This document shows, piece by piece, positions 7,812 through 49,139 of a stretch of DNA of 49,846 bases. The stretch's first letter is position 1. Each line of letters opens with the position of its first letter. The position numbers were made by a program, and so were the translations under genes. The notes under the pieces are model-generated. The model was not told the DNA's origin and searched no databases. It was given only the letters and a program-made list of their open reading frames with translations. Source of the stretch: a virus (taxonomy: Duplodnaviria; Heunggongvirae; Uroviricota; Caudoviricetes); IMG/VR virus record IMGVR_UViG_2529293147_000015, one strand, 5' to 3'.

Positions 7812-7871
7812 TCCTCACGCTCCATAAATGACAAAACCGCCCGCAGGCGGTTTCACATAAAACATTTTGCA

Positions 7872-9154: not shown

Positions 9155-9159
9155 GGGAT

Positions 9160-27280: not shown

Positions 27281-27455
27281 CGTGACTTTTCCTTTTAGTG
27301 GGTGAGCCTGCGCCCGGTGGTGACCAGCCCACAGAGAAAGTCACACTGACCATCCCGTAAGCTCACCCCTGAAAGGCTCTGTGGTTTTTTGATATTCGCC
27401 GGGCGTGGCGCGGATATGAAAAAGGCCCGCCGAAGCGAGCCTGGAAAAATAAGCG

Positions 27456-27532
27456 TGGCGCGTTGTACTGGATTCGAACCAGTGACCGATTGCTTAGAAG
27501 GCAATTGCTCTGTCCGGCTGAGCTAACAACGC
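27456..27532 (-). tRNA. tRNA-Arg (anticodon TCT)
   Basis: Clean cloverleaf: acceptor GCGTTGT/ACAACGC, anticodon loop CTTCTAA, T-loop TTCGAAT, 3' CCA. Confidence 0.85.
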
Positions 27533-27549
27533 ATAATGCAGATAATAGA

Positions 27550-27625
27550 TTGCCATCGGGGACCCGAGCCCCACACAGCCAGTTTCGAAAGCTGGCACTC
27601 TCTGTCGATGAGCTAATGGCGGTAT
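27550..27625 (-). tRNA. tRNA-like element, degenerate or unusual (possible Arg, anticodon-loop candidate TCG)
   Basis: TAGCTC D-arm start and hairpin arms present, but D- and T-loops non-canonical and acceptor pairing imperfect. Confidence 0.35.
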
Positions 27626-27629
27626 GTGA

Positions 27630-27705
27630 TGGTGGCCCTTGCTGGATTTGAACCAGCGACCTGGCGATTATGAGTCGCTCGCTCTCACCACTGAGCTAAA
27701 GGGCC
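27630..27705 (-). tRNA. tRNA-Ile2 (anticodon CAT, ileX/ileZ-like)
   Basis: GGCCCTTTAGCTCAGTGGTGAGAGC...CTCATAA...GGTTCAAATCCAGCAAGGGCCACCA. Confidence 0.85.
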
Positions 27706-27754
27706 GGGAGCAGAATAATAATGGTGCGTAATTAATTCTGCAATCTCATCCGTT

Positions 27755-28804
27755 TCAAACGATTAAATCCTGAACTTCCCTGACTGTCTGTTCAAAACGT
27801 CCGGTCTCCAGCTCAACACCAATCGCACAACGCCCCAGTGCCATCGCCGCTTTTACCGTTGAACCTGAACCCATAAAAAAATCCGCAACCAAATCACCAG
27901 GGTGACTGCTGGCCTCAATTATCTGCCGCAACATATCTGCCGGTTTTTCACAGGGATGTTTGCCCGGATAAAACTGCACGGATTTATGCGTCCAGACATC
28001 CGTATACGGAACGGCAGCCGATACGGAAAAATAACGCCGCAAAGATTTATACTCTTCCAGCAGGCTGGCATATTGCCGGTTCAGTTCACTGTATGTGCTG
28101 ACCAGCTGGTGGTGTGGCTTTTCCAGTTCCCCTCGCTGATGCTTTTCTGCCGCAACACGCGCAAACAACGCCTGCAATTTGTTGTAATCCCCCTCGTTCG
28201 GTAATTGCCACTGACTGGTACCAAACCAGTGCGAAGCCATGTTTTTCTTTCCGGTGGCTTCCGCTATCTGTTTTGACGTTATTCCCAGTGATTCACGCGC
28301 ATCACGAAAGTAAGAAATCAGCGGGGCCATGACGTGCTGTTTTAGCTCACGCCCCTTTGCCTCATAGCCGTCATTTTTGGGCTGGTATGGCCCCTGATAA
28401 TGTTCTGCAAACAGAATGCGCTCTGTTGCCGGGAAATACGCCCGCAGGCTTTCCTTGTTGCACCCGTTCCAGCGCCCTGACGGCTTCGCCCAGATAATGT
28501 GGTTCAGCACATTAAAGCGCTGACGCATCATGATTTCGGTGTCAGATGCCAGGCGATGACCACAGAACAGGTAAAGACTTCCTGCGGGCTTCAGTCCCCG
28601 CCAGAACTGCGCCAGACACTGATTCAGCCATTTCAGGTAATCATCGTCGCCCTTCCACTGGTTATCCCAGCCCTCGGGCTTCACTTTAAAGTATGGCGGG
28701 TCTGTGACTATCAGATCGACAGAATTTTCCGGTAAGGTCTGGATAAATTCCAGACAATCAGCGTTGATTAACTCACAACTGGATATTTTTACAGTATTAG
28801 CCAT
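27755..28804 (-). CDS. Orphan DNA N6-adenine methyltransferase
   Basis: TDPPY catalytic motif and FFMGSGST AdoMet-binding motif; no adjacent restriction gene. Confidence 0.85.
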   Translation of the reverse strand: MANTVKISSCELINADCLEFIQTLPENSVDLIVTDPPYFKVKPEGWDNQWKGDDDYLKWLNQCLAQFWRGLKPAGSLYLFCGHRLASDTEIMMRQRFNVLNHIIWAKPSGRWNGCNKESLRAYFPATERILFAEHYQGPYQPKNDGYEAKGRELKQHVMAPLISYFRDARESLGITSKQIAEATGKKNMASHWFGTSQWQLPNEGDYNKLQALFARVAAEKHQRGELEKPHHQLVSTYSELNRQYASLLEEYKSLRRYFSVSAAVPYTDVWTHKSVQFYPGKHPCEKPADMLRQIIEASSHPGDLVADFFMGSGSTVKAAMALGRCAIGVELETGRFEQTVREVQDLIV

Positions 28805-28940
28805 AGATCAATAAGCACTTCTCTGATAGGCTCATACCGCTTTTGCGCAAAGCAGATGGGCCTGAGGTTTGCTTGTGACCACAACGCATGAGCAGATGGC
28901 TGGCAGGTGCCGCTAACACCCACCAGCCGCCCATTACCAC

Positions 28941-28967
28941 AAATTAAAAAACCTTCACCGCGGAAGG
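28941..28967 (-). terminator. Intrinsic terminator upstream of the methyltransferase gene
   Basis: Minus-strand hairpin CCTTC-cgcggt-GAAGG followed by TTTTTTAATTT. Confidence 0.45.
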
Positions 28968-29152
28968 CGTCTGTAACAACCGAACTGATAATCTGCCAGA
29001 CCCGCCATAACAAGCTGGGTCAGTATTAACTGGCAGCGTTCGCGTGAAAGGTAAGTATTCTGCGCAATCTCCCCGACGGTCGCCGGTTCGGTGACGCTTA
29101 ATTCATTAAACACCACTCTGGCAGTTTCGGTCATATCCTGCTGTTTTAGCAT
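28955..29152 (-). CDS. Small hypothetical protein, possibly HTH-like (start at MLKQQDM assumed)
   Basis: 66-aa ORF; alternative upstream start at 29275. Confidence 0.35.
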   Translation of the reverse strand: MLKQQDMTETARVVFNELSVTEPATVGEIAQNTYLSRERCQLILTQLVMAGLADYQFGCYRRLPR

Positions 29153-29274
29153 GTCTTTTTCCCTTTTCTGGTTAACGTGACATACCAATAACTCTTGTCG
29201 AAAAAGCCAGCAAGCTGAAAGACCGGTATTCGCAACCACCAGCACGTTTAACGTACTGCGCCGTTTTTCGGACA

Positions 29275-29297
29275 CAAAAAACCGCCTGGCGGCGGGT
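29275..29297 (-). terminator. Intrinsic terminator (tR'-like candidate) in the Q-late gene interval
   Basis: Minus-strand hairpin CCGCC-gcca-GGCGG followed by TTTTTTGT. Confidence 0.45.
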
Positions 29298-29433
29298 TTA
29301 AGCTGTGTGGCGAAGTAACCACTCTTAACAGCATATTTGATTTTTTACGATTGTAAACATCTGTTCGGCGATGTCTTTTTACGATAAAATTTAGTCGAAC
29401 TTTTCTTGTACGATAATTCACAAGCAGGCCCAT

Positions 29434-29913
29434 ATGAAAAAAATAGCATTGACATTATTAAGTACATTGATCATTACAGGGTGTACGGCTCAATCTTCCG
29501 CAGAAAACAGAAATAGTGATCATTATGCGTATTTAAAGAAATGCGAAAATATCACCTTGGACAACACGCCCCAGCAAGTTAACAAAAATAATTTTTTAAA
29601 GCTTCTATATAAGGGAGAAATGATAATCAACACTACACAATTTATTACTTCCAGCAAGCAAGATATGTTAGTGAGAGTTGGCTGGGATCCCGATATATCA
29701 AAAGCAATCGCTGACTGCGACATCGAGCAAATGATGATCGTTTTAAATGCAGCAAAAGAACCATTTGAAAAACTCAAGGCAAACACAAAATCACCTACAG
29801 AGCGAGAAGCATTAATCAAAACGTATAGCGCATGGGAAAACTACGTAAGTTCTCCATCCAGAGAAAACAAAAATAATTTTAACGAAAAAGCGAGTTATTA
29901 TAAAAACATTTAA
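29434..29913 (+). CDS. Lipoprotein moron, AT-rich, convergent to Q
   Basis: MKKIALTLLSTLIITGC lipobox; visibly lower GC than flanks; upstream TACGAT repeats; downstream inverted repeat ACCCTCTCC-gca-TGGAGAGGGT. Confidence 0.65.
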   Translation: MKKIALTLLSTLIITGCTAQSSAENRNSDHYAYLKKCENITLDNTPQQVNKNNFLKLLYKGEMIINTTQFITSSKQDMLVRVGWDPDISKAIADCDIEQMMIVLNAAKEPFEKLKANTKSPTEREALIKTYSAWENYVSSPSRENKNNFNEKASYYKNI

Positions 29914-29957
29914 TTCATACCCTCTCCGCATGGAGAGGGTATGTGAGTTAAGTTTTA

Positions 29958-30332
29958 TCAGTCCATGTCCAGCTTGATATCAAGCATCATCAACATGCCG
30001 TCAACTATCCCTTCAGCCTTTTGCAACAAACGGCCAACCCAGCAATCCGAACGACCATGCTTTCGTGCTAGCGCCATAAACGTCATGCCCGCCACGTAAT
30101 AATCTACCAGCAAATCGTGTAATTCTTTGTTGTTCTTATTCAACCGGGCCATACAGCCACAAATGATCATTGCGTCATCGTCGGAACATTGCGGACGCGA
30201 TTTAACTTTCGACGGTATTAATCCTTTAAAGCCAGCAGCAATCGATGGCCATGTGACATCCTCATGATTATTTGCCACCCACGCTCCCCAACGCTCAAGA
30301 ACCATCTGAATATCACGTGCCATCGTTACCAC
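29958..30332 (-). CDS. Q: Late-gene antiterminator Q
   Basis: 124-aa [31 protein letters not shown]... with Cys/His cluster, typical of Q-family proteins of E. coli prophages. Confidence 0.75.
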
Positions 30333-30684
30333 CTGTAATTTCGTAAATCTTCACGCCCAGCCGACCACCAGGTACAAGCTGACTGCGCACAATATTAATT
30401 TCATCAAACTGCTCGTCGTCGATAAGCAGTCCCGCATGTGTCAGTGCATCCAGTGGCGCTTTCAGGATATTGTCCAGGTCACGACGGCGCTTATCCGGTG
30501 GCTCCACAATAATCCTGATCGCCAGCCTTCCGGACAGATTTAATTTCAGTCGCTGCTGGCGAACAATGAGCGCCACATCACGGCGATAACGCTCACCGGC
30601 TTTTGATACAAAATATGTACTGCCACGACGTCGCCAGTAGGTGTTCACCGTTGGCGGGTAAGGCAAAACAAACTCTATACGCAT
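30313..30684 (-). CDS. rusA: Holliday junction resolvase RusA
   Basis: RRRDLDN catalytic motif, ~123 aa. Confidence 0.85.
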
Positions 30685-32149: not shown

Positions 32150-32193
32150 ATCAGAGGTGGCGAGGGATTTCTCCCCCGCCAGGTCTCTTACTC

Positions 32194-32343
32194 CTCAGGT
32201 TCGTAAGCTGTGAAGACAGCGACCTCCGTCTGGCCGGTTCGGATTCGTACCTCGCAGAGGTCTTTCCTCGTTACCAGTGCCGTCACTATGACGGTTAAAC
32301 AGATGACGATCAGGGCGATTAACATCGCCTTTCGCTGCTTCAT
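32194..32343 (-). pseudogene. hok/gef-family type I toxin, C-terminus frameshifted by a 1-nt insertion
   Basis: Reads MKQRKAMLIALIVICLTVIVTALVTRKDLCEVRIRTGQTEV then RCLHSLRT*; removing one C near 32220 restores the canonical ...VAVFTAYEPEE* ending; small upstream ORF (32340..32399) whose stop overlaps the hok ATG. Confidence 0.6.
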
Positions 32344-33062
32344 AGCCCGCTTCTCCTTGACCTTTCGGTCCGTAAGAGGCTAATCTCTATGTGTCGCATA
32401 GATATGGCCTCAGATTAATGTTAAGCGTCTTGCAGGACGCGTAATGTTAACTGGGGCTTTTCTCTATCTGCCTTTGGTGTTCATGCCTGAGGCAGATAGC
32501 CTCAAGCACCCGCAGCAATTCTACTTAACTCCCGTCACCTCGCCAATATAAAATCAATCAGAAAGGCGATCCATAAGAACAACAGCAAGACAATAAATTG
32601 CCATTACAGCCGCAATAGCTAGCGCACATTTGAGAACCAGCACGACAACCTCCTGTATTGGACGTACACCAGTTCTGATAAATATGAGGCTGTCTCATCA
32701 TTGATTCAATATAACTATTGGGTATAGTTTCTGTGATTTTGTTCTGTAGAAATGGAACACAACAACCAGTCACCACCAGCACTTCTTTAAATACGCCAAG
32801 TCCGACGCAAGCTAACCTTCTAGTCCGCTTTGAGCGAGGAGCGGACCAAACCCGGCCAACTGACTCTTAAAGGGGCCGCAGGAATTTTTCGTCTGAACTT
32901 TCGAAGCTCCTCTCCCTGAAGACAGAAAACTTCTGTGTGCTGTGGGAATATTGAATCTTTGCATTAGATATAAATAATTTTATCCCGCCTGAAGTTTACA
33001 TTATTTTATTTATCTGTTTTTCTAAATCAGACTGCACTCCTTACTTAAATCAGGAGCCAGTC

Positions 33063-34262
33063 ATGCCATTTGTTATTTATGTGTTTACTATCAGTGCCTT
33101 TGCGCTCGGACTCGCGGAATTTGTCCCCATTGGGCTGACAGACGTTATGGCTCAGGGGTTGTGTGTGGGTGTGGAGCAGACCGGGGCAGCGGTTACAACC
33201 TATGCACTGGGGGCAACGTTCGCGGCACCCGTACTGTCTGCGCTGACAGCAAGCTGGAGCCGGAAAAATGTAATGCTTACAACTGCCGTTGTGTTTACTG
33301 CCGGTAGTCTGGCGGCCGCGTTTGCAGCCACATTACCTCAGCTCCTGTTAGCGCGGTTCATTGCTGGTCTGGGACACGGCCTGTTTCTGGCTGCGGCATC
33401 CAGTACCGCAGCTCGTCTTGCTGGACCGGGTAAAGCAGGCAGAGCGGTGGCTGTGGTATTTGGTGGCTTTACTCTGGCGATGGCAATCGGCGTACCGCTG
33501 AGTACATGGTTGGGGGGGGTGGTCTCATGGCGTCCAGTTCTCGGCGCTATTGCCGCTTTTGGCGCGTTCGGATTCCTTGGACTGTTGTTCGGTATGAAAG
33601 ATCCCGTACGCAGCGTGCCCGGTGAACATAGTGACTCAGCAATGCAGAATATCGGCATGCTGTTTAACCGTAAGTTGCTGGCCGGCGCGCTGGTTACGGT
33701 GCTGGCGTATGCAGGCTCGTTTACGGCTTACACCTTTATCGCACCTATTCTGACGCAGGTGACAGGGGTTACCGGAGCAACGGTGAGTCTGTTTATGCTG
33801 GTTTACGGTATTACAGCTGCGGTAGGTAATATTCTTGGTGGGAAACTTACCGACAGCATGGGGGTTAATCGTGCCAATATACTCATCATTAGCGGCATTG
33901 TTGTTGTCGTGCTTGGTATGTGGCTGCTGTCATCCTCACCGGTGAGCATGGGCATTCTGGTTGCGCTGCTGGGTATGGTGACATTTGCCGCAGTGCCGGC
34001 ACTGCAGGCCCGTCTGATTGGTGTCGCTGAGCAACATGCTCCTCATGCGCATGGTGTTGCTGCCGGCCTGAATATTGCGGGCTTCAACTCAGGTATAGCG
34101 CTGGGATCAGTACTGGGCAGCATTACTATAAGCCACGCCGGTATCGTGTATACCGGTATCAGCGGTGCGATTGTTTCTCTGCTCGGCCTGCTGTTGCTGC
34201 TTGCACAAATCCGTCGCAGCCACAGTCGTAAATTTCAACAGGTTAAAATCGTAGGCCAGTAA
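33063..34262 (+). CDS. MFS transporter (12-TM efflux type)
   Basis: 399-aa polytopic membrane protein with characteristic Gly-rich TM helices. Confidence 0.8.
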   Translation: MPFVIYVFTISAFALGLAEFVPIGLTDVMAQGLCVGVEQTGAAVTTYALGATFAAPVLSALTASWSRKNVMLTTAVVFTAGSLAAAFAATLPQLLLARFIAGLGHGLFLAAASSTAARLAGPGKAGRAVAVVFGGFTLAMAIGVPLSTWLGGVVSWRPVLGAIAAFGAFGFLGLLFGMKDPVRSVPGEHSDSAMQNIGMLFNRKLLAGALVTVLAYAGSFTAYTFIAPILTQVTGVTGATVSLFMLVYGITAAVGNILGGKLTDSMGVNRANILIISGIVVVVLGMWLLSSSPVSMGILVALLGMVTFAAVPALQARLIGVAEQHAPHAHGVAAGLNIAGFNSGIALGSVLGSITISHAGIVYTGISGAIVSLLGLLLLLAQIRRSHSRKFQQVKIVGQ

Positions 34263-34273
34263 AGGGAGGTTAT

Positions 34274-34966
34274 ATGCTTACCCGTGAAAATATGCTTAAT
34301 GGCACATTTGTCAGGGTGCATGAAGCGCTGCTCCCGGCGAATATGCTCTGGGACGCTGAAAAAATACGCGCATCAATGAACTCTACTCTGGAGGAGCGCC
34401 CGACGGGTGCTCCTTTCTGGATATTTGCCTACGGGTCATTGATGTGGAATCCCGTGCTGGCAATTGAAGAAATGCAACGGGCCCGTCTGAAAGGATGGCA
34501 GCGCAGTTTCTGCATTCGTTTGATATCCGGACGAGCGACTCCTGATGTCCCCGGCAGGATGTTATCGCTCGACGAAGGTGGAATTACCGAAGGGATTGCG
34601 TTCAGACTGCCGGAATCGACTCTTATTAATGAGCTGGAAATTGTCTGGACGCGCGAGATGATAACCGGTCTTTACCGTCCGGTCTGGGCAGACGTTTCGC
34701 TAGGAAACGGTGAGGAAATTCAGGCGCTGGCTTTCGTATCAGACAGACTGCATCCGCATTATGAACAGGACAATCTTACAGCGACCGTAGCATTGAGCAT
34801 CGCATCTGCCCGTGGAGACATTGGCACGAATGCAGATTATGTATGGAAACTGCAGGCCACTCTGGGTGCGTTGGGAATACGGGATGATTACGTGAGTGAA
34901 CTGGCCCTTGCTCTGCATGAGGCTCCCTGTAACGATAAACTTCATCAGCGAGGCGCTTCACTATGA
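34274..34966 (+). CDS. ChaC-like gamma-glutamylcyclotransferase family protein
   Basis: FWIFAYGSLMWNP motif and ...LWTREMITG... Confidence 0.75.
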   Translation: MLTRENMLNGTFVRVHEALLPANMLWDAEKIRASMNSTLEERPTGAPFWIFAYGSLMWNPVLAIEEMQRARLKGWQRSFCIRLISGRATPDVPGRMLSLDEGGITEGIAFRLPESTLINELEIVWTREMITGLYRPVWADVSLGNGEEIQALAFVSDRLHPHYEQDNLTATVALSIASARGDIGTNADYVWKLQATLGALGIRDDYVSELALALHEAPCNDKLHQRGASL

Positions 34967-35844
34967 GCCATCTGAGCCATCTGCGAACGTTTCTTGAGGC
35001 CTATCGCTCTGGCTCCTTTTCAAAGGCGGCAGAACTACTGGGCATCACTCAGCCCGCGGCGTCACAGCATATCCAGTCTCTTGAGACTCTGGTTGGTAAG
35101 CGTCTGTTTATCAGGCAGGCCAGAGGCGTGACGGCAACCGAAGCTGCGGATGAGCTTGCCCGCTCAGTTTCACCCTTCATTGATGGTCTGGAAGAAAAGC
35201 TGTCCTCTTTCCGGTCAGGCTCTGTACACGGGGGAACAATTAATCTGGCAGGACCGCCAGATTTTATTCATTCCCGGCTTGGGACAGTAATGGCTCCACT
35301 AATGAAGGAGGGGTATCGCTTACGCTTTCATACCGGCAATAAGCAACGTATTTATTCCCTTTTGCATGACGGGAGCGCCGATCTCGCTGTTACCGCATCT
35401 ATGCCTGATGACCGTCTGTACGGCTATGCACATCTACTGACTGAACGCATGCTCCTTGTTCATGCTCCCGCCATGTCAGAGATCATCGGATCAGAACCTG
35501 GTGCTGAAACGCTTGCCTCATTACCGCTGATTGCTTATGACGAAGAGTTGCCACTGATTAGAGCGCTCTGGGCCTCCATGTTTCAGAGAGCCCCTGAGAT
35601 GCAGGCTACATTCACCATTCCGGATTTACGTATTATCCGCGACTTGGTCTGTGACGGCCACGGGTGGACAGTGCTGCCGGATTATCACTGTGACAATGAC
35701 CTGAAAAGTGGTCGCCTGATTTCAGTGACCCCTGCAGACCTCGCTCCGACTAATCATCTTTATCTGGTCTGGAACAAAAGGACGGCTAATAACAGCCGAA
35801 CCGCCTATGTTCGGGATTACATTCTTAAAACGTTTCCGCGTTGA
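34963..35844 (+). CDS. LysR-family transcriptional regulator
   Basis: N-terminal HTH (LRTFLEAYRSGSFSKAAELLGITQPAASQHIQSLE) plus substrate-binding domain; start overlaps the ChaC-like stop. Confidence 0.85.
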   Translation: MSHLSHLRTFLEAYRSGSFSKAAELLGITQPAASQHIQSLETLVGKRLFIRQARGVTATEAADELARSVSPFIDGLEEKLSSFRSGSVHGGTINLAGPPDFIHSRLGTVMAPLMKEGYRLRFHTGNKQRIYSLLHDGSADLAVTASMPDDRLYGYAHLLTERMLLVHAPAMSEIIGSEPGAETLASLPLIAYDEELPLIRALWASMFQRAPEMQATFTIPDLRIIRDLVCDGHGWTVLPDYHCDNDLKSGRLISVTPADLAPTNHLYLVWNKRTANNSRTAYVRDYILKTFPR

Positions 35845-35888
35845 TGTTTGAAACGGATGATTGGCGATGCGTATCATAAGTTACGTAT

Positions 35889-35918
35889 GTCCGCTTCTGG
35901 CACAAAGCAGACGCCCAC
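35889..35918. repeat. Direct repeat copy 1 (GTCCGCTTCTGGCACAAAGCAGACGCCCAC)
   Basis: ~30-bp imperfect direct repeat of 39562..39591; the pair brackets the DUF2254 and BCCT genes. Confidence 0.5.
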
Positions 35919-35974
35919 TCTCACGCGAATGCTTTGCCCTTGACTTGCCAACAACCGTATCGCTTGCTCCGCAA

Positions 35975-37267
35975 CTATGGTTTTTTATTAGAACCTTCGC
36001 CACTAAATAAATTATAATAAATTGATTTTATTAGATATCTGTCAGAATCTATATGGTCAGCACGAGTAGCATGCTCTAATGTTTCAAATGCTAGGGTTTG
36101 TGCGGCTTCAGCAAAAATTCCAGGCCAACCCTTACTCAGCATCGACAGTCCTTTAAGTACCCTTATCTGAATTTCCCTCATACTGGCACCATCGCGCGCA
36201 ACAGGTGAGAAAAAGTCTTCAAGTAGATCGTTATTCTGAAGTGGTGCAACATGTACAGAAGGATATTTCACTTCTATTTCATCAGATTTATTCTGCGCGT
36301 AAGCGGAAAGTATACGTACACCTCTGCCAATGACATCAATGGCGGTTCCAGGATCGTTCACTGCGGGGGAAAGGGCTCGGCAGGCTATTTCGGCCATGAC
36401 GCTAAGACAAAATCGGGGGTCCTGAGCAAATGAACGTACATCCGAGACAATAATCGTCTCAAGTAAATCGGTGCTGATTGATGACTCCTGGCCCTGACTC
36501 AGGTACAAAACTGGCGTGGACGGATGTATGAAACTGCCCGGCTGCGCCACGAGGTATACATGACGGGGATCATTGGTCAGCAGCTTGCTGAGTTTCACCA
36601 TATCAACATATTCAACATAGCCAATCTTTTTCGGATAAACTGCAACCGTTCCTTTCGGCTGTTCATTGTTCTCAAGCCAAGGATATCCGCCGAGACAGGG
36701 ATTTCTTGCTCTCGCAATAAATGTTTCGATGGCCGCCTGTTCTACTTTTGCCGTTGTCTCACCAACCCTCCCCAGAGAGGTCAAATGCTGTATCCAGCGA
36801 AGCAATGTGATGAGGATTAAGGCAATGACAACCAGTGTTACAATGAATAAAATGACTCTCCCCCTTTCTCCATAAGCTCCCATATTGAGGGCAATAATCC
36901 CTACCAGACTGAAGAGAAAAGAACCGATGAAGGTGGCCAGTACATTTTGTGTGGTGACGTCTTCAACAACTAAACGAGTAGCTCTGGGAGTCACATTAGT
37001 AGTGGCTGAACCGTAGGCTGTGACCATGATGCTCAGCGAAAATGTGGTCACTGCCAGCATACTCGATGCCAGTATGTTCAGAATGTTATCGACTGCTTCC
37101 GCACCAACCTTCACGGAAACCGACTCAGGTATCATTGATTTAAAAAGAATTGATAAAAGGGCCGTTATTATTGCGACAATTGCGAATAACGTTGCCCTGA
37201 ACCATAGTTTTTTAAATGTCTGCTTCAGCATCCATTTCCAGCGTGAAATCATTCTGCATTCCCTCAT
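35975..37267 (-). CDS. DUF2254-type integral membrane protein
   Basis: 430-aa ORF with N-terminal TM bundle and soluble C-terminal domain. Confidence 0.6.
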   Translation of the reverse strand: MRECRMISRWKWMLKQTFKKLWFRATLFAIVAIITALLSILFKSMIPESVSVKVGAEAVDNILNILASSMLAVTTFSLSIMVTAYGSATTNVTPRATRLVVEDVTTQNVLATFIGSFLFSLVGIIALNMGAYGERGRVILFIVTLVVIALILITLLRWIQHLTSLGRVGETTAKVEQAAIETFIARARNPCLGGYPWLENNEQPKGTVAVYPKKIGYVEYVDMVKLSKLLTNDPRHVYLVAQPGSFIHPSTPVLYLSQGQESSISTDLLETIIVSDVRSFAQDPRFCLSVMAEIACRALSPAVNDPGTAIDVIGRGVRILSAYAQNKSDEIEVKYPSVHVAPLQNNDLLEDFFSPVARDGASMREIQIRVLKGLSMLSKGWPGIFAEAAQTLAFETLEHATRADHIDSDRYLIKSIYYNLFSGEGSNKKP

Positions 37268-37315
37268 ATTGCAGCCGGGATAAATAAATGCCGCCTCTGT
37301 GGCGGCATGTTGCTG

Positions 37316-39319
37316 TTAACGAACCAGATGCAGGAAGTGCAGGTGTTTTTCGTACTGGTCCAGTATGTCATTAATCAGCTGTTCCTGATTCCAGCCCATT
37401 ACATCATAATTTTGGCCGCCCTCTTTGAGATAGACTTCAGCGCGATAATATCGATGTTGTTCACTCTGCTGCTCATCATTATCCAGCGCAGCGAGCGCGA
37501 AGGTCGGTGAGTTATACCCGCGAAGCCTCACTTCATATATATAATTCAGCTCGTTGCCCAAATCGACTTCAAGGCGAATACGATCCTCGGCGGCGTCACT
37601 GATGTGGCTTATCGTTCCCTGCTTGTTAAGTTCCTCCTGAACCAGCGTCATGGCGGGTTGGATAATGTCGTCCATAAAACGTTTCACAAGAGAGCGCTTC
37701 GGCAAATACGCGATATTGCGTAACCTTCTCTGCCAGGGAATTGGGTTACGTGCAGCCGTAGGAGCAATAGTCGCCATGCTAAGGCTTTCACGCTTGGTCA
37801 AATCCCGACGCAGGGCTTTTAACAGTCCGTATATGGATATTAATAAGATAACTGAGAAGGGCAATGCACTCGCTATCGTTACGGTTTGCAACGCACTCAG
37901 CCCCCCTGCGATCAGCAGGGCAATAGCAACAACGCCCATGAGCGATGCCCAGAAAATTCGCTGCCAGACGGGCGTGTTTGCCACCCCACCTGATGCCAGA
38001 GTATCCACAACCATTGCCCCCGAATCAGCAGACGTTACAAAGAAGACGATGACCATCGCCATTGCAATGAATGACAGCACGGAAGAGAACGGGAAATGCT
38101 CCAGGAAATTAAACAGGGCAAGCGCAACATCCTGCTGAACGGTATTGGCGAGGTCAGTGGCGCCCTGGTTCATGATGAGATAGATGGCGCTGTTTCCAAA
38201 CACCGTCATCCACATGAGCGTAAAGCCGGCGGGAACAAACAACACGCCAGTCACGAACTCACGAATTGTCCTGCCGCGGGAAACGCGTGCAATGAACATA
38301 CCTACAAACGGCGACCATGAAAGCCACCATCCCCAGTATAATAATGTCCAGCCCCCCAGCCAGTTGCTCGACTTGGGTTCATACGCGTAAAGGTTGAACG
38401 TTTTACTCACCAGTTCCGACAGATAACCACCCGTATTTTCCACAAATGACTTCAGCAGAAGCACAGTGGGACCCAGGCACAAGACCAGCGCCAGGAGCAA
38501 CACCGCCAGGCCCAGATTAAGCTCAGACAGGATGCGTATTCCCTTGTCCAGGCCGGACACCACCGAAATCGTCGCTAACCCCGTGATGACCACGATCAAA
38601 ATGACCTGTACCGTTTCATTGATGGGCACGCCGAAAAGATGGTTCAAACCGGCATTCACCTGCAATACACCGTAACCCAGTGATGTTGCAACGCCAAAGA
38701 CAGTGCCTATCACGGCGAAGATATCAACCGCGTGGCCTATAGGCCCGTAAATGCGATCGCCGATAATGGGATAGAGCGCAGAACGCAGCGTTAAAGGCAG
38801 ACCGTGACGGTAACTGAAAAAGGCCAGAATCAGCGCCACGATGGCATAAATTGCCCATGCGTGCAGACCCCAGTGGAAGAACGTCAGGCGCATGGCTTCC
38901 TTCGCTGCCGCAACGGTCTCTGGAGTGCCGACAGGTGGCGAAAGATAATGCATCACAGGTTCGGCAACGCCAAAGAACATCAGGCCGATCCCCATCCCTG
39001 CCGAAAAAAGCATCGCGAACCAGGAGTGGTAGCTGAAATCAGGCTGCGCATGGTCTGGGCCCAGCTTTATATCACCGTAACGTGAGAGTCCAAGGAACGT
39101 GACGCTCAGTAAAATCAGGGCCACAGCAAGTATGTAGAACCAGCTGGCATTCGTGAAGATTTGTTGCTGAAGTAGTTTAAAATTTTTGTCGGCGACATCC
39201 GGGAATACGGCGGCAAAGGCGACAAGAAGGAAAATTAGCAAAGCAGATGTAAAGAATACCGCTTTGTTAATCTGGCTTGTAGACTTCTTTGGGGTTGTAT
39301 CATTTTCACTCATAATCAT
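37316..39319 (-). CDS. BCCT-family (betaine/carnitine/choline) transporter
   Basis: 667 aa; BCCT signature around WTLLYWGWWLSWSPFVGMFIARVSRGRTIREF. Confidence 0.85.
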   Translation of the reverse strand: MIMSENDTTPKKSTSQINKAVFFTSALLIFLLVAFAAVFPDVADKNFKLLQQQIFTNASWFYILAVALILLSVTFLGLSRYGDIKLGPDHAQPDFSYHSWFAMLFSAGMGIGLMFFGVAEPVMHYLSPPVGTPETVAAAKEAMRLTFFHWGLHAWAIYAIVALILAFFSYRHGLPLTLRSALYPIIGDRIYGPIGHAVDIFAVIGTVFGVATSLGYGVLQVNAGLNHLFGVPINETVQVILIVVITGLATISVVSGLDKGIRILSELNLGLAVLLLALVLCLGPTVLLLKSFVENTGGYLSELVSKTFNLYAYEPKSSNWLGGWTLLYWGWWLSWSPFVGMFIARVSRGRTIREFVTGVLFVPAGFTLMWMTVFGNSAIYLIMNQGATDLANTVQQDVALALFNFLEHFPFSSVLSFIAMAMVIVFFVTSADSGAMVVDTLASGGVANTPVWQRIFWASLMGVVAIALLIAGGLSALQTVTIASALPFSVILLISIYGLLKALRRDLTKRESLSMATIAPTAARNPIPWQRRLRNIAYLPKRSLVKRFMDDIIQPAMTLVQEELNKQGTISHISDAAEDRIRLEVDLGNELNYIYEVRLRGYNSPTFALAALDNDEQQSEQHRYYRAEVYLKEGGQNYDVMGWNQEQLINDILDQYEKHLHFLHLVR

Positions 39320-39561
39320 TTATTCCATTAATTAAATCCGCACTGGATAGAAGGTACTACCTCTCACAGAGTAGCAAAGTTCAACTGGCTATGCGGGGTT
39401 AATCGGAATGCATGGTGGAATGAGTGCCGATACAAATCATCCTATATTCTAAGGAGTTTTAAGTTACTCAGCCTGCCAATTACTGGGGCATTTAATTTGT
39501 ATGATCTGTATCAAAGCTGGGATATAAGTTAAGTGAAGTATATTAGGCACGAATTACCAGC

Positions 39562-39591
39562 GTCTGCTCTTGGCACAAAGCGGACAACCAC
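39562..39591. repeat. Direct repeat copy 2 (GTCTGCTCTTGGCACAAAGCGGACAACCAC)
   Basis: Matches 35889..35918 at ~24 of 30 positions. Confidence 0.5.
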
Positions 39592-39653: not shown

Positions 39654-40076
39654 TCACTTCAATAAATACCGAACATCCCCCTGATAAAACGACAATATGC
39701 GCTGCATAACTTCGCTCTTCCGGCACTCGCGACAGATTATGTTTAGGCGACTGTCGTAGCGACGTATTTCTCCGTCAGGTAATGACCAGATAAGGTCCGG
39801 ATCAACCACAACCGGTTTCTTCAGCTTTGCCCTCGATAATTTTTTGCGGGCATTTTGCCAGTCTTTACGAGCCTGTTCAGACGGGAATAACCCGTAGCCA
39901 GAATTGTATACATCGCCACTGGCAACCAGCTCTCTGGCCAGAACGCTCATCAGATATCTTGTTGCCCCAGTTTTAGCTTCCAGTTGTCGTAACGTCTCGC
40001 GCCCACTCTGGCGTACGAGTTCAAGAACCTGCCCTTTAATTTTTTCCCGCTCTTCTTGTGTAAAAACTTTTGCCAC
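39654..40076 (-). CDS. Hypothetical phage early protein, possibly DNA-binding
   Basis: 140-aa ORF downstream of the replication initiator. Confidence 0.5.
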   Translation of the reverse strand: MAKVFTQEEREKIKGQVLELVRQSGRETLRQLEAKTGATRYLMSVLARELVASGDVYNSGYGLFPSEQARKDWQNARKKLSRAKLKKPVVVDPDLIWSLPDGEIRRYDSRLNIICRECRKSEVMQRILSFYQGDVRYLLK

Positions 40077-40116: not shown

Positions 40117-41193
40117 TTACCCCCTGAAGCCCGGCGGAATTTCGTTATCCGGTTCAGAAATATGATTCACACAACGCTGGTTGTTCGTGCCGCTTACCGG
40201 GAGCAACCAGGGGTTCTCAAAATTCCGGTCCGGTCCAAAAAACGTCGTCGCTCGCTGAACAAATTCCGTTCCCGTTTTCCCGGTAGCCGCCAAGTATCTT
40301 GCGTAACGCCTCACGCCATCCAGCATGGCCTCTGGTGGCACCCCCTCGCGTAATCTGGCCTTCCAGGCACTGAAAGCGGATTTCTTCGGGTTTGCCCCAG
40401 CACGCAACGGGTACTCCCGCCAGACCTGTTCGAACACATCCGGATAATCCACTCGTCCCACAGACTGCCCGGTGTTTTCCGGGACTACCCGATCGGCTTC
40501 CCGCTGAATGGCGGAATCGGCTTCAGGGTGCTGCAGTTGGTGTGATTGCTCCGCCCTTGCGGTCATCACCTGCTGCACAGCGCCCGAATCGGCTTTCAGC
40601 GCATACGCTGAATCGGCTTCCGGTGTCGTGCCTGCTGGCTGACCAAGATTGACGGTCTGAACATCCCCTGCCTGGTTCGTGGCGTTTTTTACGCCATGGA
40701 CCATAGTGTTTTGATCTTCTTGATCTGTATCTTTATCTGTATCTTTATCTGTCGTGACTCGTCGTGACATGTGCGTGACATTTCGTGACGCGCCGTGACA
40801 ATCGCCATTTTGTTCCCGCTTTCTTTCCCTCTCTCGCTGCGCCCTCTTGCGCTCTGCAGGAGATTTTGCGGTTTGCGAAATATTGCCGTTGTCCTCTTTA
40901 AGCACCTGGCGTTTTTCCCATCCAGTGATTAAATCACCATCAAGTACCCGCCCCTGCATCGTCTGCAAAATTGAATCAATTACCTCTTCTGTCACGTCGA
41001 GCGCACTTGCCAAATCTTCTGTCGTGACATCAATGTGACCTCGCGTGACATTTCGTGACGCGCTCACCAGGAGGTGGATATACACTGCCATCACTGTTGC
41101 AATTGGCTGCCCTGACACCCTGGCAATTGTTCGCCACTTAGGGTCATTTGGCATGTCATGCCATAATCTGAGCCAGGCGTTAGCCATACTCAC
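40117..41193 (-). CDS. Replication initiation protein (YdaU/DUF1376-like) with internal iterons
   Basis: 358-aa ORF in the O-gene position after Cro-like and YdaT-like genes; internal CGTGAC iterons. Confidence 0.55.
   Translation of the reverse strand: MSMANAWLRLWHDMPNDPKWRTIARVSGQPIATVMAVYIHLLVSASRNVTRGHIDVTTEDLASALDVTEEVIDSILQTMQGRVLDGDLITGWEKRQVLKEDNGNISQTAKSPAERKRAQRERERKREQNGDCHGASRNVTHMSRRVTTDKDTDKDTDQEDQNTMVHGVKNATNQAGDVQTVNLGQPAGTTPEADSAYALKADSGAVQQVMTARAEQSHQLQHPEADSAIQREADRVVPENTGQSVGRVDYPDVFEQVWREYPLRAGANPKKSAFSAWKARLREGVPPEAMLDGVRRYARYLAATGKTGTEFVQRATTFFGPDRNFENPWLLPVSGTNNQRCVNHISEPDNEIPPGFRG
40721..40806. repeat. Putative replication origin iterons, cluster 1
   Basis: Five CGTGAC copies at ~10-11 bp spacing (40753, 40763, 40774, 40785, 40795) preceded by tandem TATCTTTATCTG. 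Confidence 0.55.
41018..41064. repeat. Putative replication origin iterons, cluster 2
   Basis: CGTGAC repeated at 41023, 41044, 41055; CGTGACATTTCGTGACGCGC shared with cluster 1. Confidence 0.5.
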
Positions 41194-41258: not shown

Positions 41259-41684
41259 TCAATGCACAGCCACAATATTTCCTGCAGGGCCACCACGATT
41301 CATCTGGTTGAAACCAGCGATCGCCACTGCGACAAAATCATCAGCGTCTCTCACCAGCCGTTCCCGCGTCTCCACCAGCTCCCGAAACCAGGCTGAACTG
41401 TGGCTGCGCATTCGGGCCACCAGCAGAGGCGGCATTGCTTTTTCGATAGCTGGTAACAACGCCTGAATTTTTTTAACCGCATCAGGGGTGTCTTTCTCCA
41501 CCCAGCGGAAAATTTTCTGAGTATTGCGAGCCAGGGCTTCCGGATGGCTGTCGTTATACAGTTCCGGGAACGTCATTCCCAGCTCGAAATACGCTTTGGT
41601 AATTTTCGCAGCCGGAACTTTTTCACCGTCCGGATGCGCCCAGGCATTCATCGCCATGCGGATGTGTTCATGCTTGATTTTCAT
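41259..41684 (-). CDS. YdaT-like protein (CII-like regulator position)
   Basis: 141-aa ORF MKIKHEHI... immediately downstream of the Cro-like gene. Confidence 0.5.
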   Translation of the reverse strand: MKIKHEHIRMAMNAWAHPDGEKVPAAKITKAYFELGMTFPELYNDSHPEALARNTQKIFRWVEKDTPDAVKKIQALLPAIEKAMPPLLVARMRSHSSAWFRELVETRERLVRDADDFVAVAIAGFNQMNRGGPAGNIVAVH

Positions 41685-41983
41685 GAATCAACTCCATCAG
41701 ATAAGCATGCACTACAATCACCTTCAGCATGAACTACATGTGTTTGCCCCAAACGAATGCCGCTCGCATACTCAGGCCAAATAAGCTCCCAATCATGGGG
41801 TCGTAGCTCCGCCCTACTTACTTGGCCTTCCGTCGCAGATTCGATCATAAGGGCGCGTGTTGGAGATATAGCTGCTCGTCCAGACGCCATTTGCGATAAG
41901 TAAGATGGCGATACACCAAGTCTGGCTGCGAATTTCTTAGCATCACCAACCCTCAATGATTTAATAAACTCTTTTAATGTCAT
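41681..41983 (-). CDS. Cro-like HTH regulator (YdaS-like)
   Basis: HTH segment AKKFAARLGVSPSYLSQMASGR; divergent from the repressor gene. Confidence 0.6.
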   Translation of the reverse strand: MTLKEFIKSLRVGDAKKFAARLGVSPSYLSQMASGRAAISPTRALMIESATEGQVSRAELRPHDWELIWPEYASGIRLGQTHVVHAEGDCSACLSDGVDS

Positions 41984-41991
41984 ACCTTCCT

Positions 41992-42070
41992 CGGTTTAGT
42001 GTTTTTTTTGAGAGTTTAGTGTTTAATAAACCATTAAGTCAAGTATTTGCTTGTTTAGTGATTACTAAAG
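41992..42070. promoter_or_regulatory. OR-like operator and divergent promoter region
   Basis: Three GTTTAGTG copies (41994, 42015, 42053) and palindrome GTTTAATAAAC between the divergent Cro-like and repressor genes. Confidence 0.5.
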
Positions 42071-42081
42071 ATAATTACCAC

Positions 42082-42453
42082 ATGCAAAAAAAAGAAATTC
42101 GCCGTTTACGTCTCAAGGAGTGGTTTAAAGATAAAACTCTGCCACCCAAAGAGAAGAGCTACCTATCTCAACTAATGAGTGGGAGAGCCTCGTTTGGAGA
42201 AAAGGCTGCCAGAAGAATAGAGCAAACATACGGGATGCCGGAAGGGTATCTGGATGCGGAATACGCAGAACAACCGGAGGTTTCTCCACCACATGCAGGG
42301 TTAACGTCTAATCAACTGGAATTATTGCAGATTTTTTCAGCCTTCCCTGAGGATGAGCAACGCCAGATAATCAGCGAGTTAAAGCAGAAAAAAGAATCAA
42401 TGGAAGATCTCATAGCGAGATGGATTGCGGCGCAAAAATGCCGCCGCGCCTGA
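42082..42453 (+). CDS. Prophage repressor / regulator (RacR- or PaaR-like)
   Basis: ORF from MQKKEIRRLRLKEW...; divergent to the Cro-like gene and upstream of the TA pair. Confidence 0.55.
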   Translation: MQKKEIRRLRLKEWFKDKTLPPKEKSYLSQLMSGRASFGEKAARRIEQTYGMPEGYLDAEYAEQPEVSPPHAGLTSNQLELLQIFSAFPEDEQRQIISELKQKKESMEDLIARWIAAQKCRRA

Positions 42454-43013: not shown

Positions 43014-43066
43014 GCGGTTTAGTTTTTACTTGACTTAAGTTTAATGTTTATTAAACTAAAAATATC
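43014..43066. promoter_or_regulatory. OL-like operator region
   Basis: Inverted copy of the OR sequence (TTAATAAAC, TTAAGTCAAG shared) upstream of the plus-strand early-left genes. Confidence 0.45.
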
Positions 43067-43155
43067 AACCCACCCCGCCCCACATAATGCAGGGCAATAC
43101 TTCGAGTTACCAGGCAGTGGTCAGGGGTTAAGTAGCCAGCCCGAGGCGTAAGAAC

Positions 43156-43392
43156 ATGACGGCAGGGTTCAACTTTAATAACTATGCAGCAGGTTTTTGT
43201 TCCGCTACCCCGGCGTTAAGGGGAAATGAGGTCAGCATGGATACTATCGATCTTGGCAACAGCGAATCTCTGGTATGTGGCGTGTTCCCCAACCAGGACG
43301 GTACGTTCACCGCGATGACGTATACCAAAAGCAAAACGTTTAAAACCGAAAATGGTGCCCGTCGCTGGCTGGAAAGAAACTCAGGTGAGTGA
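43156..43392 (+). CDS. Hypothetical early-left protein
   Basis: 78-aa ORF, first gene after OL. Confidence 0.35.
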   Translation: MTAGFNFNNYAAGFCSATPALRGNEVSMDTIDLGNSESLVCGVFPNQDGTFTAMTYTKSKTFKTENGARRWLERNSGE

Positions 43393-43393
43393 T

Positions 43394-43522
43394 ATGGATT
43401 TCGACACAATCATGGAAAAGGCTTACGAAGAATACTTCGAAGGTCTTGCCGAAGGCGAAGAAGCTCTCAGCTTCAACGAATTTAAACAGGCGCTTTCCAG
43501 TTCGGCAAAATCTAACGGCTGA
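43394..43522 (+). CDS. Small acidic protein (42 aa)
   Basis: ATG 2 nt after the upstream stop; MDFDTIMEKAYEEYFEGLAEGEEALSFNEFKQALSSSAKSNG; below ORF-track cutoff. Confidence 0.3.
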   Translation: MDFDTIMEKAYEEYFEGLAEGEEALSFNEFKQALSSSAKSNG

Positions 43523-43551
43523 TAAGCGAAACAGCACCGCGAGGAATCAGT

Positions 43552-43767
43552 ATGCAGAAACGAGAACCCGTCATCATCGCGCCAGACTATACCGATGATG
43601 AACTTTATGAGTGGATGCACCAGAAAATTAATGCAGCGCAGGATCTGAAATGGGCCAATGAAGCTAGGGCTAAGCAGGCTGAAAATCTGTCCGCTCTGGA
43701 GCAGGATATCACCAATCTGGAAAAAGCAGCAGCATTAAGCATTGCCAGAATGATTACAGGTTGGTAA
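43552..43767 (+). CDS. Hypothetical early-left protein
   Basis: 71-aa ORF, coiled-coil-like C-terminus. Confidence 0.4.
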   Translation: MQKREPVIIAPDYTDDELYEWMHQKINAAQDLKWANEARAKQAENLSALEQDITNLEKAAALSIARMITGW

Positions 43768-43777
43768 TAAAGGAGTT

Positions 43778-43829
43778 CTCCACGGGTGAGGTGGAGTGCG
43801 TGTGCCGGACACGGGTGAGCATCCGGCAC
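43778..43829 (+). ncRNA. Tandem stem-loops sharing CACGGGTGAG (candidate structured RNA or protein-binding element)
   Basis: Hairpin 1 CTCCAC-gggtgag-GTGGAG (43778..43796); hairpin 2 GTGCCGGA-cacgggtgagca-TCCGGCAC (43802..43829). Confidence 0.3.
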
Positions 43830-44306
43830 TGACAGTTTACTGAAAGGATATTTCCCTGAAAAGTCAGACCATAACGCGAAAGCGCACGGCGAGGTAGCTG
43901 GTTCATAGATAGCCTGTCGTTAAATTTTCGTCGACCGTGCGCTTCCGGTTGTGGCAATCCGCGAAATGGCGCGGCGGTAAGTATGGCGGGGTTATTCCTT
44001 CCCCCGTTGAGGACACCGGGTTGTCAGGTTGACCATACGCTTAAGTGACAACCCCGCTGCAACGCCCTCTGTTATCAATTTTCTGGTGACGTTTGGCGGT
44101 ATCAGTTTTACTCCGTGACTGCTCTGCCGCCCTTTTTAAAGTGAATTTTGTGATGTGGTGAATGCGGCTGAGCGCACGCGGAACAGTTAAAACCAAAAAC
44201 AGTGTTATGGGTGGATTCTCTGTATCCGGCGTTAATTGTTAACTGGTTAACGTCACCTGGAGGCACCAGGCACCGCATCACAAAATTCATTGTTGAGGAC
44301 GCGATA

Positions 44307-44495
44307 ATGAAAACGTTATTACCAAACGTTAATACGTCTGAAGGTTGTTTTGAAATTGGTGTCACTATCAGTAACCCAGTATTTACTGAAGATGCCATTA
44401 ACAAGAGAAAACAAGAAGGGGAGCTATTAAATAAAATATGCATTGTTTCAATGCTGGCTCGTTTACGTCTGATGCCAAAAGGATGTGCACAATGA
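44307..44495 (+). CDS. Small hypothetical protein
   Basis: 62-aa ORF from MKTLLPNVNTSEG..., RBS GAGGA. Confidence 0.35.
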   Translation: MKTLLPNVNTSEGCFEIGVTISNPVFTEDAINKRKQEGELLNKICIVSMLARLRLMPKGCAQ

Positions 44496-44683
44496 ATTCA
44501 GCATTTGCGCTTGTTCTGACAGTTTATCTTGTTTCCGGAGAGCCAGTTGATATTGCAGTCAGTGTTCACAGGACAATGCAGGAGTGTATGACTGCAGCAA
44601 CCGAACAGAAAATTCCCGGTAACTGTTACCCGGTCGATAAAGTTATTCACCAGGATAATAACGAAATCCCGGCAGGTCTTTAA
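44492..44683 (+). CDS. Small secreted or membrane protein
   Basis: 63-aa ORF MNSAFALVLTVYLVSG... with signal-peptide-like N-terminus; ATGA overlap with the upstream gene. Confidence 0.4.
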   Translation: MNSAFALVLTVYLVSGEPVDIAVSVHRTMQECMTAATEQKIPGNCYPVDKVIHQDNNEIPAGL

Positions 44684-44775
44684 AACAGTTCCGTAATAAA
44701 TATCCGGTTTCATTCTTATATGCCAGCAATGGCAGGGATTTATTCACCCTTAAATCTGTAATGAGGTAAAACAAA

Positions 44776-47247: not shown

Positions 47248-47319
47248 TGTTCAACTGTCGCCGGTTGTGACTGGTATTCTGCAACCGGCGCTCGTCTAAT
47301 GTAAGAGATAAAGAAATCG

Positions 47320-47571
47320 ATGAGCGAAGTAATCATGATTGTCTCTCCCGGCAAATGGGTATCCGAAGAGCAGTTAATTGCGCTGAAAGGAATAAAAAAA
47401 GGTACGTTAAAAAAGGCCCGGGAAAAATCGTTTATGGAAGGAAGGGAATATAAGCATGTCGCTCATGACGGTATGCCATGGGATAACAGCCCATGCTTTT
47501 ACAACCTGGAAGAAATTGATCGCTGGATTGAGCGCCAGGCATCAGCAAGACCAAGACGTCATCTTACTTGA
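47320..47571 (+). CDS. xis: Excisionase (Xis)
   Basis: Small basic ORF immediately upstream of int. Confidence 0.65.
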   Translation: MSEVIMIVSPGKWVSEEQLIALKGIKKGTLKKAREKSFMEGREYKHVAHDGMPWDNSPCFYNLEEIDRWIERQASARPRRHLT

Positions 47572-47590
47572 CTAAAAGCCACACTAACTA

Positions 47591-48886: not shown

Positions 48887-49139
48887 TTTAATATTTATCA
48901 AATAGTTGACACGTATGACTCTTGAAATCCATAATTCACAGATGTTTTTTCTCATTCTGTGGTTTCCTTGGCGCTTTCTAGGTTTTTTCAGATAGTTACA
49001 TTTTTTCAAAAGCATCCTGAGTTCGATCTTACTATCTATCTGTGGCCTATTTCTGTCCCATATATGCCCCAAAAAACACCCCAACAGATAAGCAATCTTT
49101 TCATGGTGTTACGCGTAAAAACAATAACGGCTTGAAATT

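Follow-up and report, generated by a model that had tools for sequence, protein, structure and literature searches.

Two cargo cassettes in a motif-bounded hypervariable slot of a Qin/Rac-type lambdoid phage genome

The virus record IMGVR_UViG_2529293147_000015 (49,846 nucleotides; this whole stretch of DNA is called the window below) represents the genome of a Qin/Rac-type lambdoid phage in reverse orientation, with its tail and head genes on the minus strand from position 1 to approximately 24 kb. Among its early genes lie five of nonphage origin, and the locus raises the question of how such a load came to sit there and whether the phage lost genes of its own in the process. An earlier note, made from the sequence alone, had treated the five genes as one 6.3-kb cargo block that may have replaced part of the replication and nin modules. 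Our analysis showed that the block consists of two independently acquired cassettes, which occupy a hypervariable slot found in lambdoid phages of the Qin/Rac type. The block is ordinary in kind, being phage-hotspot cargo; its metabolic and transport load is unusual, and the shared boundary motif is the most interesting lead. We consider it likely that the two-cassette array, the motif-bounded slot, an intact replication module, motif-centred exchange and expression of the cargo jointly constitute the full explanation.

Two cassettes in one slot

The placement of nonphage cargo inside a single phage genome, between the replication genes and the hok/nin/Q region, was borne out by the identification of the flanking genes and by an attP junction described below. 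The 6.3-kb block is real; the variable segment proved to be slightly larger, however, and spans 6,715 bp (positions 32847 to 39561) between DUF977 and hok/sok. Its hok-side edge is formed by a 24-bp motif, here called type B (GTCCGCTTTGAGCGAGGAGCGGAC; 32823 to 32846, plus strand), and its DUF977-side edge by a 24-bp type-A motif (GTCTGCTCTTGGCACAAAGCGGAC; 39562 to 39585, plus strand), while a further 24-bp type-A motif (GTCCGCTTCTGGCACAAAGCAGAC; 35889 to 35912, plus strand) marks the junction between the cassettes. In the direction of early-right transcription, the elements follow one another as DUF977, type A, the BCCT and DUF2254 genes, type A, the MFS, ChaC and LysR genes in antisense orientation, type B and hok.

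The earlier note had proposed that comparison with related prophages would locate the insertion boundaries, and this comparison placed the edges at 32846 and 39561 and the internal junction at 35889 to 35912. Similarity of the window to phages Evi and Tritos and to a Rac-type prophage breaks off immediately after the type-B motif ending at 32846, and homology to Evi and Tritos restarts at the motif at 39562. Homology to the Rac-type prophage (locus L003) and to an Escherichia coli island (L002) begins exactly at the internal motif at 35889. The nonphage genes are thus genuine, but they were acquired as two separate cassettes and not as a single block.

To define the slot, we used a census of 45 loci that were selected for a B-type site beside the hok flank and that carry both edge motifs; the type-B motif is accordingly found at this position in 45 of 45. 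These loci hold approximately 15 cargo alleles of 984 to 6,715 bp, the largest being that of the window, and the backbone flanks of the slot are 88 to 100% identical across related loci. Other occupants include RelA_SpoT, FRG, GmrSD_N, AbiH and HEPN/RES-like proteins, and the presence of AbiH-, GmrSD-, RelA_SpoT- and FRG-type proteins indicates that several of the alternative cargos are defence-like. The slot of Tritos holds 1.8 kb with one FRG-domain gene, and that of Evi holds 1.4 kb with a GNAT acetyltransferase gene and a regulator gene. The locus therefore behaves as a cargo hotspot, with a fixed position, alternative content and genes that do not belong to the phage life cycle and have close relatives on bacterial chromosomes.

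All five genes lie at the coordinates given in the earlier note, and their open reading frames (ORFs) and Pfam families were confirmed, with Pfam matches far exceeding the curated cut-offs. Cassette 1 (32847 to 35888, plus strand) consists of a 104-nt linker, a native promoter region, the MFS-ChaC-LysR trio and a 41-nt linker. The trio encodes a DHA1-like efflux transporter of the major facilitator superfamily (MFS; 399 amino acids; 33063 to 34262, plus strand; Pfam MFS_1, E value of 2.9e-42), a ChaC-like gamma-glutamylcyclotransferase (230 amino acids; 34274 to 34966, plus strand; Pfam ChaC, 4.8e-35, 121.6 bits) and a LysR-family regulator (293 amino acids; 34963 to 35844, plus strand; Pfam HTH_1 and LysR_substrate). 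The genes form the tight plus-strand operon that had been proposed: the ChaC stop and LysR start codons overlap in an ATGA sequence at 34963 to 34966, and the MFS-ChaC gap of 11 nt contains a GGGAGG ribosome-binding site. The best NCBIfam matches of the MFS protein (Cmx/CmrA, sugar efflux, AraJ and NepI) all fell below their cut-offs. In the ChaC-like protein, we found both the YGSLMW motif and the Arg-Glu (TREM) typical of the ChaC family; its best solved relative is human ChaC2, and no NCBIfam model matched it.

The source of cassette 1 is visible in its relatives. The region from 32950/32970 to 35847 shares 84 to 87% nucleotide and 89 to 96% amino acid identity with loci of Pantoea rwandensis and Enterobacter sp. 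BIGb0383, which are nonphage chromosomal loci situated among ordinary metabolic genes, with neighbours that differ between the two genomes. A putative promoter-like site upstream of the MFS gene (TTGAAT, 16 nt, AATAAT; 32951 to 32978, plus strand), called by consensus scan only, falls in sequence that alignment showed to be conserved with these Pantoea and Enterobacter loci. The native upstream region thus travelled with the cassette, and the two linkers were found only alongside it. Near the chromosomal trio loci, we also observed weak motif copies with two mismatches each and a few kilobases away, one type-B-like (L007, position 11408, P. rwandensis), which has the usual AGCAAT prefix, and one type-A-like (L008, position 12477); these could be chance matches or traces of mobilisation of the trio.

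Cassette 2 (35913 to 39561, minus strand; 3.65 kb) carries the DUF2254 and BCCT genes with their upstream region. The DUF2254 membrane protein has 430 amino acids (35975 to 37267, minus strand; Pfam DUF2254, 1.6e-92), and the BCCT transporter, of a BetT-like subfamily, has 667 (37316 to 39319, minus strand; Pfam BCCT, 7e-199). A putative terminator-like GC-rich hairpin with a T-run, again from a consensus scan only, lies between them (37288 to 37308, minus strand). The BCCT protein scored 752 bits against the NCBIfam BetT subfamily model, above the cut-off of 695; with 42% identity to BetT of E. coli K-12 and no betIBA linkage, it does not qualify as a BetT orthologue. Homologues of DUF2254 are common across Enterobacterales, and the gene adjoins a BCCT gene in every context examined.

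The distribution of cassette 2 differs from that of cassette 1. It occurs at 99.8% identity in prophages with other left-hand neighbours (L003, L019, L031, L049 and L069) and at approximately 94% identity in an insertion sequence (IS)-rich E. coli island represented by approximately 1,550 records, and the DUF2254-BCCT pair was also found on a plasmid. In Lelliottia, the pair belongs to the core chromosome, lies next to dcp and is free of motifs. In Lelliottia amnigena (L138, 5938 to 9275), its surroundings are dcp, ydfG, rspR, ydfZ and ydfI, genes that in E. coli surround the Qin attachment site in ydfJ, a hint that a Qin-type prophage may originally have captured the pair through aberrant excision. 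In Enterobacter asburiae (L135 to L137, approximately 5938 to 10330), the pair is found at a prophage end, after the tail-fibre genes and a Pin-like invertase gene; beyond it come a type-A motif, a DUF2971 gene, a type-B motif and chromosomal purB, which repeats the cassette grammar at another phage position. The two-cassette block of Shigella flexneri SFBU0723 (L006, 9700 to 13030) has its DUF2254 and BCCT genes in several fragments, and the cargo is decaying in Shigella.

By family membership, the BetT-like BCCT protein with its constant DUF2254 partner would import a quaternary-ammonium osmoprotectant, the ChaC-like enzyme would have glutathione or a different gamma-glutamyl compound as the substrate that it cleaves, and transport of this substrate or of a product would fall to the MFS protein. 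The trio, which opposes phage transcription, would run from its own promoter under LysR control. Both cassettes have native upstream regions of their own and are probably expressed in the lysogen; the promoter and terminator calls for the cargo, being consensus matches only, are a point against this part of the explanation.

The whole block is present in 297 of 5,426 complete E. coli genomes (5.5%), so it is accessory and not core DNA. Poultry isolates and human clinical isolates are among the listed top matches to the cargo, which had no match among 50,697 deposited phage records.

Boundary motifs and the route of cargo exchange

The motifs are imperfect palindromes with the arms GTCCGC and GCGGAC. 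The window contains exactly three copies with perfect arms, all at cassette edges, and zero copies of the type-A pattern are expected in it by chance. In the four multi-cassette alleles, an internal motif was found at each junction (4/4), and no single-cassette allele contains one. In viral contigs, the sequence directly to the left of the type-A site beside DUF977 comes in at least 16 unrelated versions, and the left arm of this site varies with the cargo to its left. In the complete genomes of Tritos and of the P2-like phage 899, as in the window, the motif family is confined to the hotspot. No Rfam family covers the motifs, a literature search for the literal motif strings returned nothing relevant, and literature on the boundary sequences of lambdoid morons yielded nothing specific.

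The same motifs are found in P2, where a type-A copy lies between G and fun(Z) and a type-B copy on the FI side. In the Z region of P2-EC48 (GenBank AJ512681), the site is annotated as a 'left inverted repeat', and motifs separate each of the three foreign ORFs. The window, P2, P2-EC48 and phage 899 thus share the Z/fun-type arrangement of A/B palindromes at the edges of the cargo and between cassettes, and the order along backbone transcription is A, cargo, B in P2-like and lambdoid phages alike. The P2-EC48 entry belongs to the 2004 study of Nilsson, Karlsson and Haggard-Ljungquist (Mol Biol Evol 21:1), which by its title puts forward site-specific recombination as the mechanism.

As breakpoints fall at the motifs in several unrelated contexts, we infer that new cargo would enter the slot, or be swapped, by recombination centred on them. 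The route could be either site-specific recombination by some enzyme acting at the motifs or short-homology recombination, for example by the phage's own RecE-type system. As a tentative proposal that we regard as possible but doubtful, the type-A and type-B palindromes would be the sites of an integron- or pdif-like cassette-exchange system common to lambdoid and P2-like Enterobacterales phages, with a putative enzyme that is possibly host-encoded. If this were true, the system would fill fixed hotspots with defence genes, or in this phage with genes for metabolism and transport, and would move the same cassette among phage families, prophage ends and chromosomal islands.

Several observations weigh against motif-centred exchange. 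We could link no recombinase to the motifs, a lambda-type Int and Xis being the only ones among the screened ORFs; the search pattern itself accounts in part for the unvarying right half of the type-A sites; and the DUF2254-BCCT cassette has no type-B site of its own. Action of the phage integrase was rejected, as the att core (GAAATCCATAA) bears no resemblance to the motifs. A structural hairpin found no support in folding energy, the three motifs as single-stranded DNA being no more stable than shuffled sequences (z of -1.7 to +0.1). The idea that the two ends of a cassette make up one perfect palindromic site, implying a circular intermediate, holds in the window, Tritos, Evi and L026, but the two commonest alleles, of 984 and 2,192 bp, contradict it; it was therefore dropped as evidence. 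A YdaT operator was discounted too, the published box (TTGATT-N6-AATCAA) being unrelated to the motifs. An integron was likewise rejected, because the recombinases found among the screened ORFs do not include IntI and the motifs are unlike attC.

The alternative that survives best holds that the motifs are nothing more than conserved backbone or serve regulation, for example as RNA 3′ stem-loops or as a site bound by a protein, and that cargo is swapped by homologous recombination in the long flanks. The high identity of the flanks over hundreds of bases would suffice for RecA- or RecET-mediated exchange, the polarity of the motifs relative to backbone transcription, equal in P2 and lambdoid phages, would suit a role in transcription, and the lack of an identified recombinase speaks for it as well. 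However, motifs are also found between cassettes, where backbone is absent, the same cassette is motif-bounded in three unrelated contexts, and the P2-like and lambdoid backbones have the motifs, and not the flanks, in common. We therefore regard homologous exchange in the flanks as a serious rival for the outer edges of the slot that explains the internal and cross-family motifs less well; as an account of the whole, it is conceivable, though we would not favour it.

A related palindrome (GTCCGCCACTGGCTCAGAGCTGAC) was observed in related prophages between two TolA-like cargo genes downstream of Q (L001, 14555 to 14578; L003, 2923; L006, 1912; L011, 22527). Its position beyond Q suggests that the motif family may mark a second lambdoid cargo site.

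Replication module and phage genome

The last backbone gene before the slot encodes a DUF977/LygF/Ren-like protein (39654 to 40076, minus strand; Pfam DUF977, 2.2e-28; phrog_142, 'Ren-like exclusion protein'). It is preceded by the gene of the replication initiator, or replisome organiser (358 amino acids; 40117 to 41193, minus strand; phrog_3729, 1e-256), and by an immunity region (41259 to 42453) in which Pfam and PHROGs identified a YdaT/cII-like gene (41259 to 41684, minus strand), a YdaS/Cro-like gene (41681 to 41983, minus strand) and a repressor gene (41977 to 42453, plus strand). On the nin side of the slot, the first backbone element is the hokD toxin gene (approximately 32188 to 32343) with the sok antisense RNA region (together 32188 to 32511, minus strand). 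The sok RNA was recognised by Rfam (104.8 bits; 32341 to 32511), HokD was read from the translation, and hokD is annotated in a closely related prophage of strain AR_452. This side continues with DUF968, RusA and Q.

Pfam and PHROG screens of ORFs in the early region revealed no separate P/DnaC/IstB-like loader, AAA+ loader or DnaB-like helicase, which agrees with the earlier note's observation that a stand-alone loader is missing; the window thus lacks the loader gene that follows the initiator in a lambda-type O/P module. The initiator itself offers a candidate substitute. Its residues 124 to 358 match phrog_1701, 'DnaD-like helicase loader' (7e-63), and its C-terminal half also matches a 'primosomal protein' PHROG, while residues 335 to 358 (GTNNQRCVNHISEPDNEIPPGFRG; 40117 to 40191, minus strand) match the extreme C terminus of E. 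coli DnaT (PDB 6aep, E value of 0.003; also 2ru8 and 9zbt) through the common motif SEPDNxIPPGFRG. The loader-like half and the DnaT-like tail together suggest that helicase recruitment is probably built into the initiator, so that replication would need no phage loader gene, this single protein probably recruiting the host DnaB-DnaC itself. The tail may be a mimic of the host replication-restart factor that recruits DnaB-DnaC or PriA; a 2026 preprimosome paper states no function for the extreme DnaT C terminus. The Pfam Phage_rep_org_N match of the initiator was weak (E value of 0.13). The case for built-in recruitment is limited by two points: the single-sequence AlphaFold model of the initiator had a mean predicted local distance difference test score of 45, too poor to test the loader-like half, and the 'loader-like' label of that half rests on PHROG annotation.

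The form of the genome bears on this question as well. The int gene lies at 47591 to 48886 and is followed by an attP core that contains the att sequence given above (48924 to 48938, plus strand; context 48880 to 49846) and joins the int arm to the tail-fibre-side arm. In AR_452 (NZ_CP030331), a 97.7%-identical prophage of approximately 48.9 kb is inserted between rspB and a truncated ydfJ, i.e., at the Qin site. Positions 43062 to 48938 of the window match the int end of this prophage, whereas 48924 to 49846 match its opposite end beside the truncated ydfJ. The window therefore represents the attP form of one element, and its source was an excised, circular or tandem form. If real, the circular form would measure approximately 50.7 kb, near the upper packaging limit of lambda of approximately 51 kb. 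In enterotoxigenic E. coli strains, the same cargo lies within a prophage remnant of approximately 26 kb at the Qin site.

These data allowed us to assess the suggestion that insertion of the cargo deleted the loader gene and part of nin, leaving a replication-defective prophage. The failure to find a P/DnaC/IstB-like or DnaB-like gene is what such a loss would predict, and the frameshifts in the tail-tip gene J (see below) leave room for the window copy being defective for another reason. Yet Tritos, which forms plaques, and Evi share the gene set on both sides of the slot: they have the same YdaS-YdaT-initiator-DUF977 module at 96% identity, likewise without a P/DnaC-type loader gene, and the same hok-DUF968-(RusA)-Q continuation beyond the slot. 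Tritos, prophage 3 of E. coli LF82, was spontaneously induced, gave a plaque, was grown on MG1655 and was seen as a siphovirus by electron microscopy (PMC9928086). Moreover, homology of the window to Tritos and Evi stops at 32846 and restarts at 39554 to 39561, so the backbone breakpoints coincide with the slot edges and no backbone is missing, and the attP junction implies that the element has excised or circularised. The loss of replication or nin genes to the cargo thus did not hold up, and we judge it very improbable. For prophage annotation, this means that a missing P/DnaC gene is normal for this replication module and no sign of decay.

Delivery of the block by an insertion sequence or composite transposon has only a slight chance of being correct: IS100 lies inside DUF2254 in some genomes (istA/istB in the E. 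coli chromosomes of hits H1, H21 and H25), and IS600, IS911, ISKpn26 or IS1 borders the pair on the island and the plasmid, but no transposase ORF is present in or beside the block in the window, and the IS elements elsewhere interrupt or truncate the pair, which marks them as secondary events. Finally, the view that two separate phage remnants flank a stretch of conserved chromosome, which the earlier note had named as the finding that would overturn its own, draws on the island and Lelliottia core-chromosomal copies of the pair but is practically excluded by the presence of the full block in so few genomes, by its position between DUF977 and hok in the contexts examined, two genes that neighbour each other in the contiguous backbones of isolated phages, and by the attP junction, which makes the window a single circularly joined genome.

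Other features of the window concern the phage copy itself. The tail-tip gene J (4345 to 7811, minus strand) is spread over three reading frames with at least four frameshifts and has a length that is not a multiple of three, while the tape measure, terminase, portal and side tail fibre genes are intact; barring sequencing errors there, the window copy may be unable to form infectious particles. The region from 27422 to 30343 is unlike the AR_452 prophage and carries genes for a 124-amino-acid Q-like antiterminator, a 159-amino-acid ORF (29434 to 29913, plus strand), a DNA methyltransferase (349 amino acids; 27755 to 28804) and two tRNAs (27459 to 27532 and 27633 to 27705). This mosaic and the cargo occur together in no complete E. 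coli genome, and none of these genomes covers more than 74% of positions 25000 to 49846. The Rfam families found in the whole window were sok, the two tRNAs, the DicF antisense RNA in the early-left region (44081 to 44132, plus strand) and the IS009 RNA family in the tail-fibre-assembly region (44 to 242, minus strand).

Comparison with known systems

Our results indicate that the occupants of a phage hotspot, often anti-phage genes, can also be a regulated metabolic operon and a transporter of the osmoprotectant type; this cargo is spread through approximately 5% of complete E. coli genomes. Variable loci in two unrelated phage families are marked by one set of short boundary motifs. These motifs make the 2004 proposal of site-specific acquisition of foreign genes by P2-like phages, old and barely followed, directly testable, and they provide a simple sequence handle for locating phage cargo and defence genes.

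At the level of single proteins, the ChaC-like protein resembles the glutathione-specific gamma-glutamylcyclotransferases of the ChaC family in domain architecture and family motifs but, unlike them, matched no NCBIfam model. The BCCT protein matches E. coli BetT in domain architecture and has the long C-terminal extension of the BetT type, from which it differs in its modest identity and in lacking betIBA linkage. As host-benefit genes in a prophage with predicted expression signals of their own, the cassettes recall lambdoid morons such as lambda rexAB, lom and bor and Rac trkG. The last of these encodes a transporter and, in E. coli K-12, lies beyond ydaW, the DUF977 homologue of Rac. Unlike classical morons, the cargo of the window combines two cassettes of separate origin, of which one brings a regulator of its own, in a motif-bounded slot.

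In outline, the array also resembles integron arrays and the pdif modules of Acinetobacter, in which gene units are split by short imperfect palindromes and the same unit occurs on different replicons. It is a member of neither family, as it has no IntI gene and its motifs are not like attC, attI or the XerC/D dif site. Among lambdoid phages, Tritos and Evi share the backbone of immunity, replication, DUF977, hok, DUF968 and Q genes at 85 to 96% identity, together with the same slot and motifs, and differ from the window in the size of the cargo (1.8 and 1.4 kb, respectively, versus 6.7 kb).

The comparison with P2-like phages extends to the organisation of the locus. The 2004 study is cited for one of two variable P2 loci with anti-phage genes in work on the antiviral hotspots of P2 and P4, in which the other P2 locus (tin/old) was analysed (Rousset et al. 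2022, PMC9122126). Like P2 Z/fun and the P2/P4 hotspots, the slot described here is a fixed place between backbone genes that holds interchangeable foreign genes, and, like the P2/P4 hotspots, it holds defence-like genes in other phages. The window differs from those hotspots in that its cargo is much larger and serves transport and metabolism, not defence, and from P2 in phage family and in the flanking genes, which are DUF977 and hok here and G and FI in P2. With P2 Z/fun, it nevertheless shares the grammar of type-B motif, cargo and type-A motif, including the motifs between cassettes.

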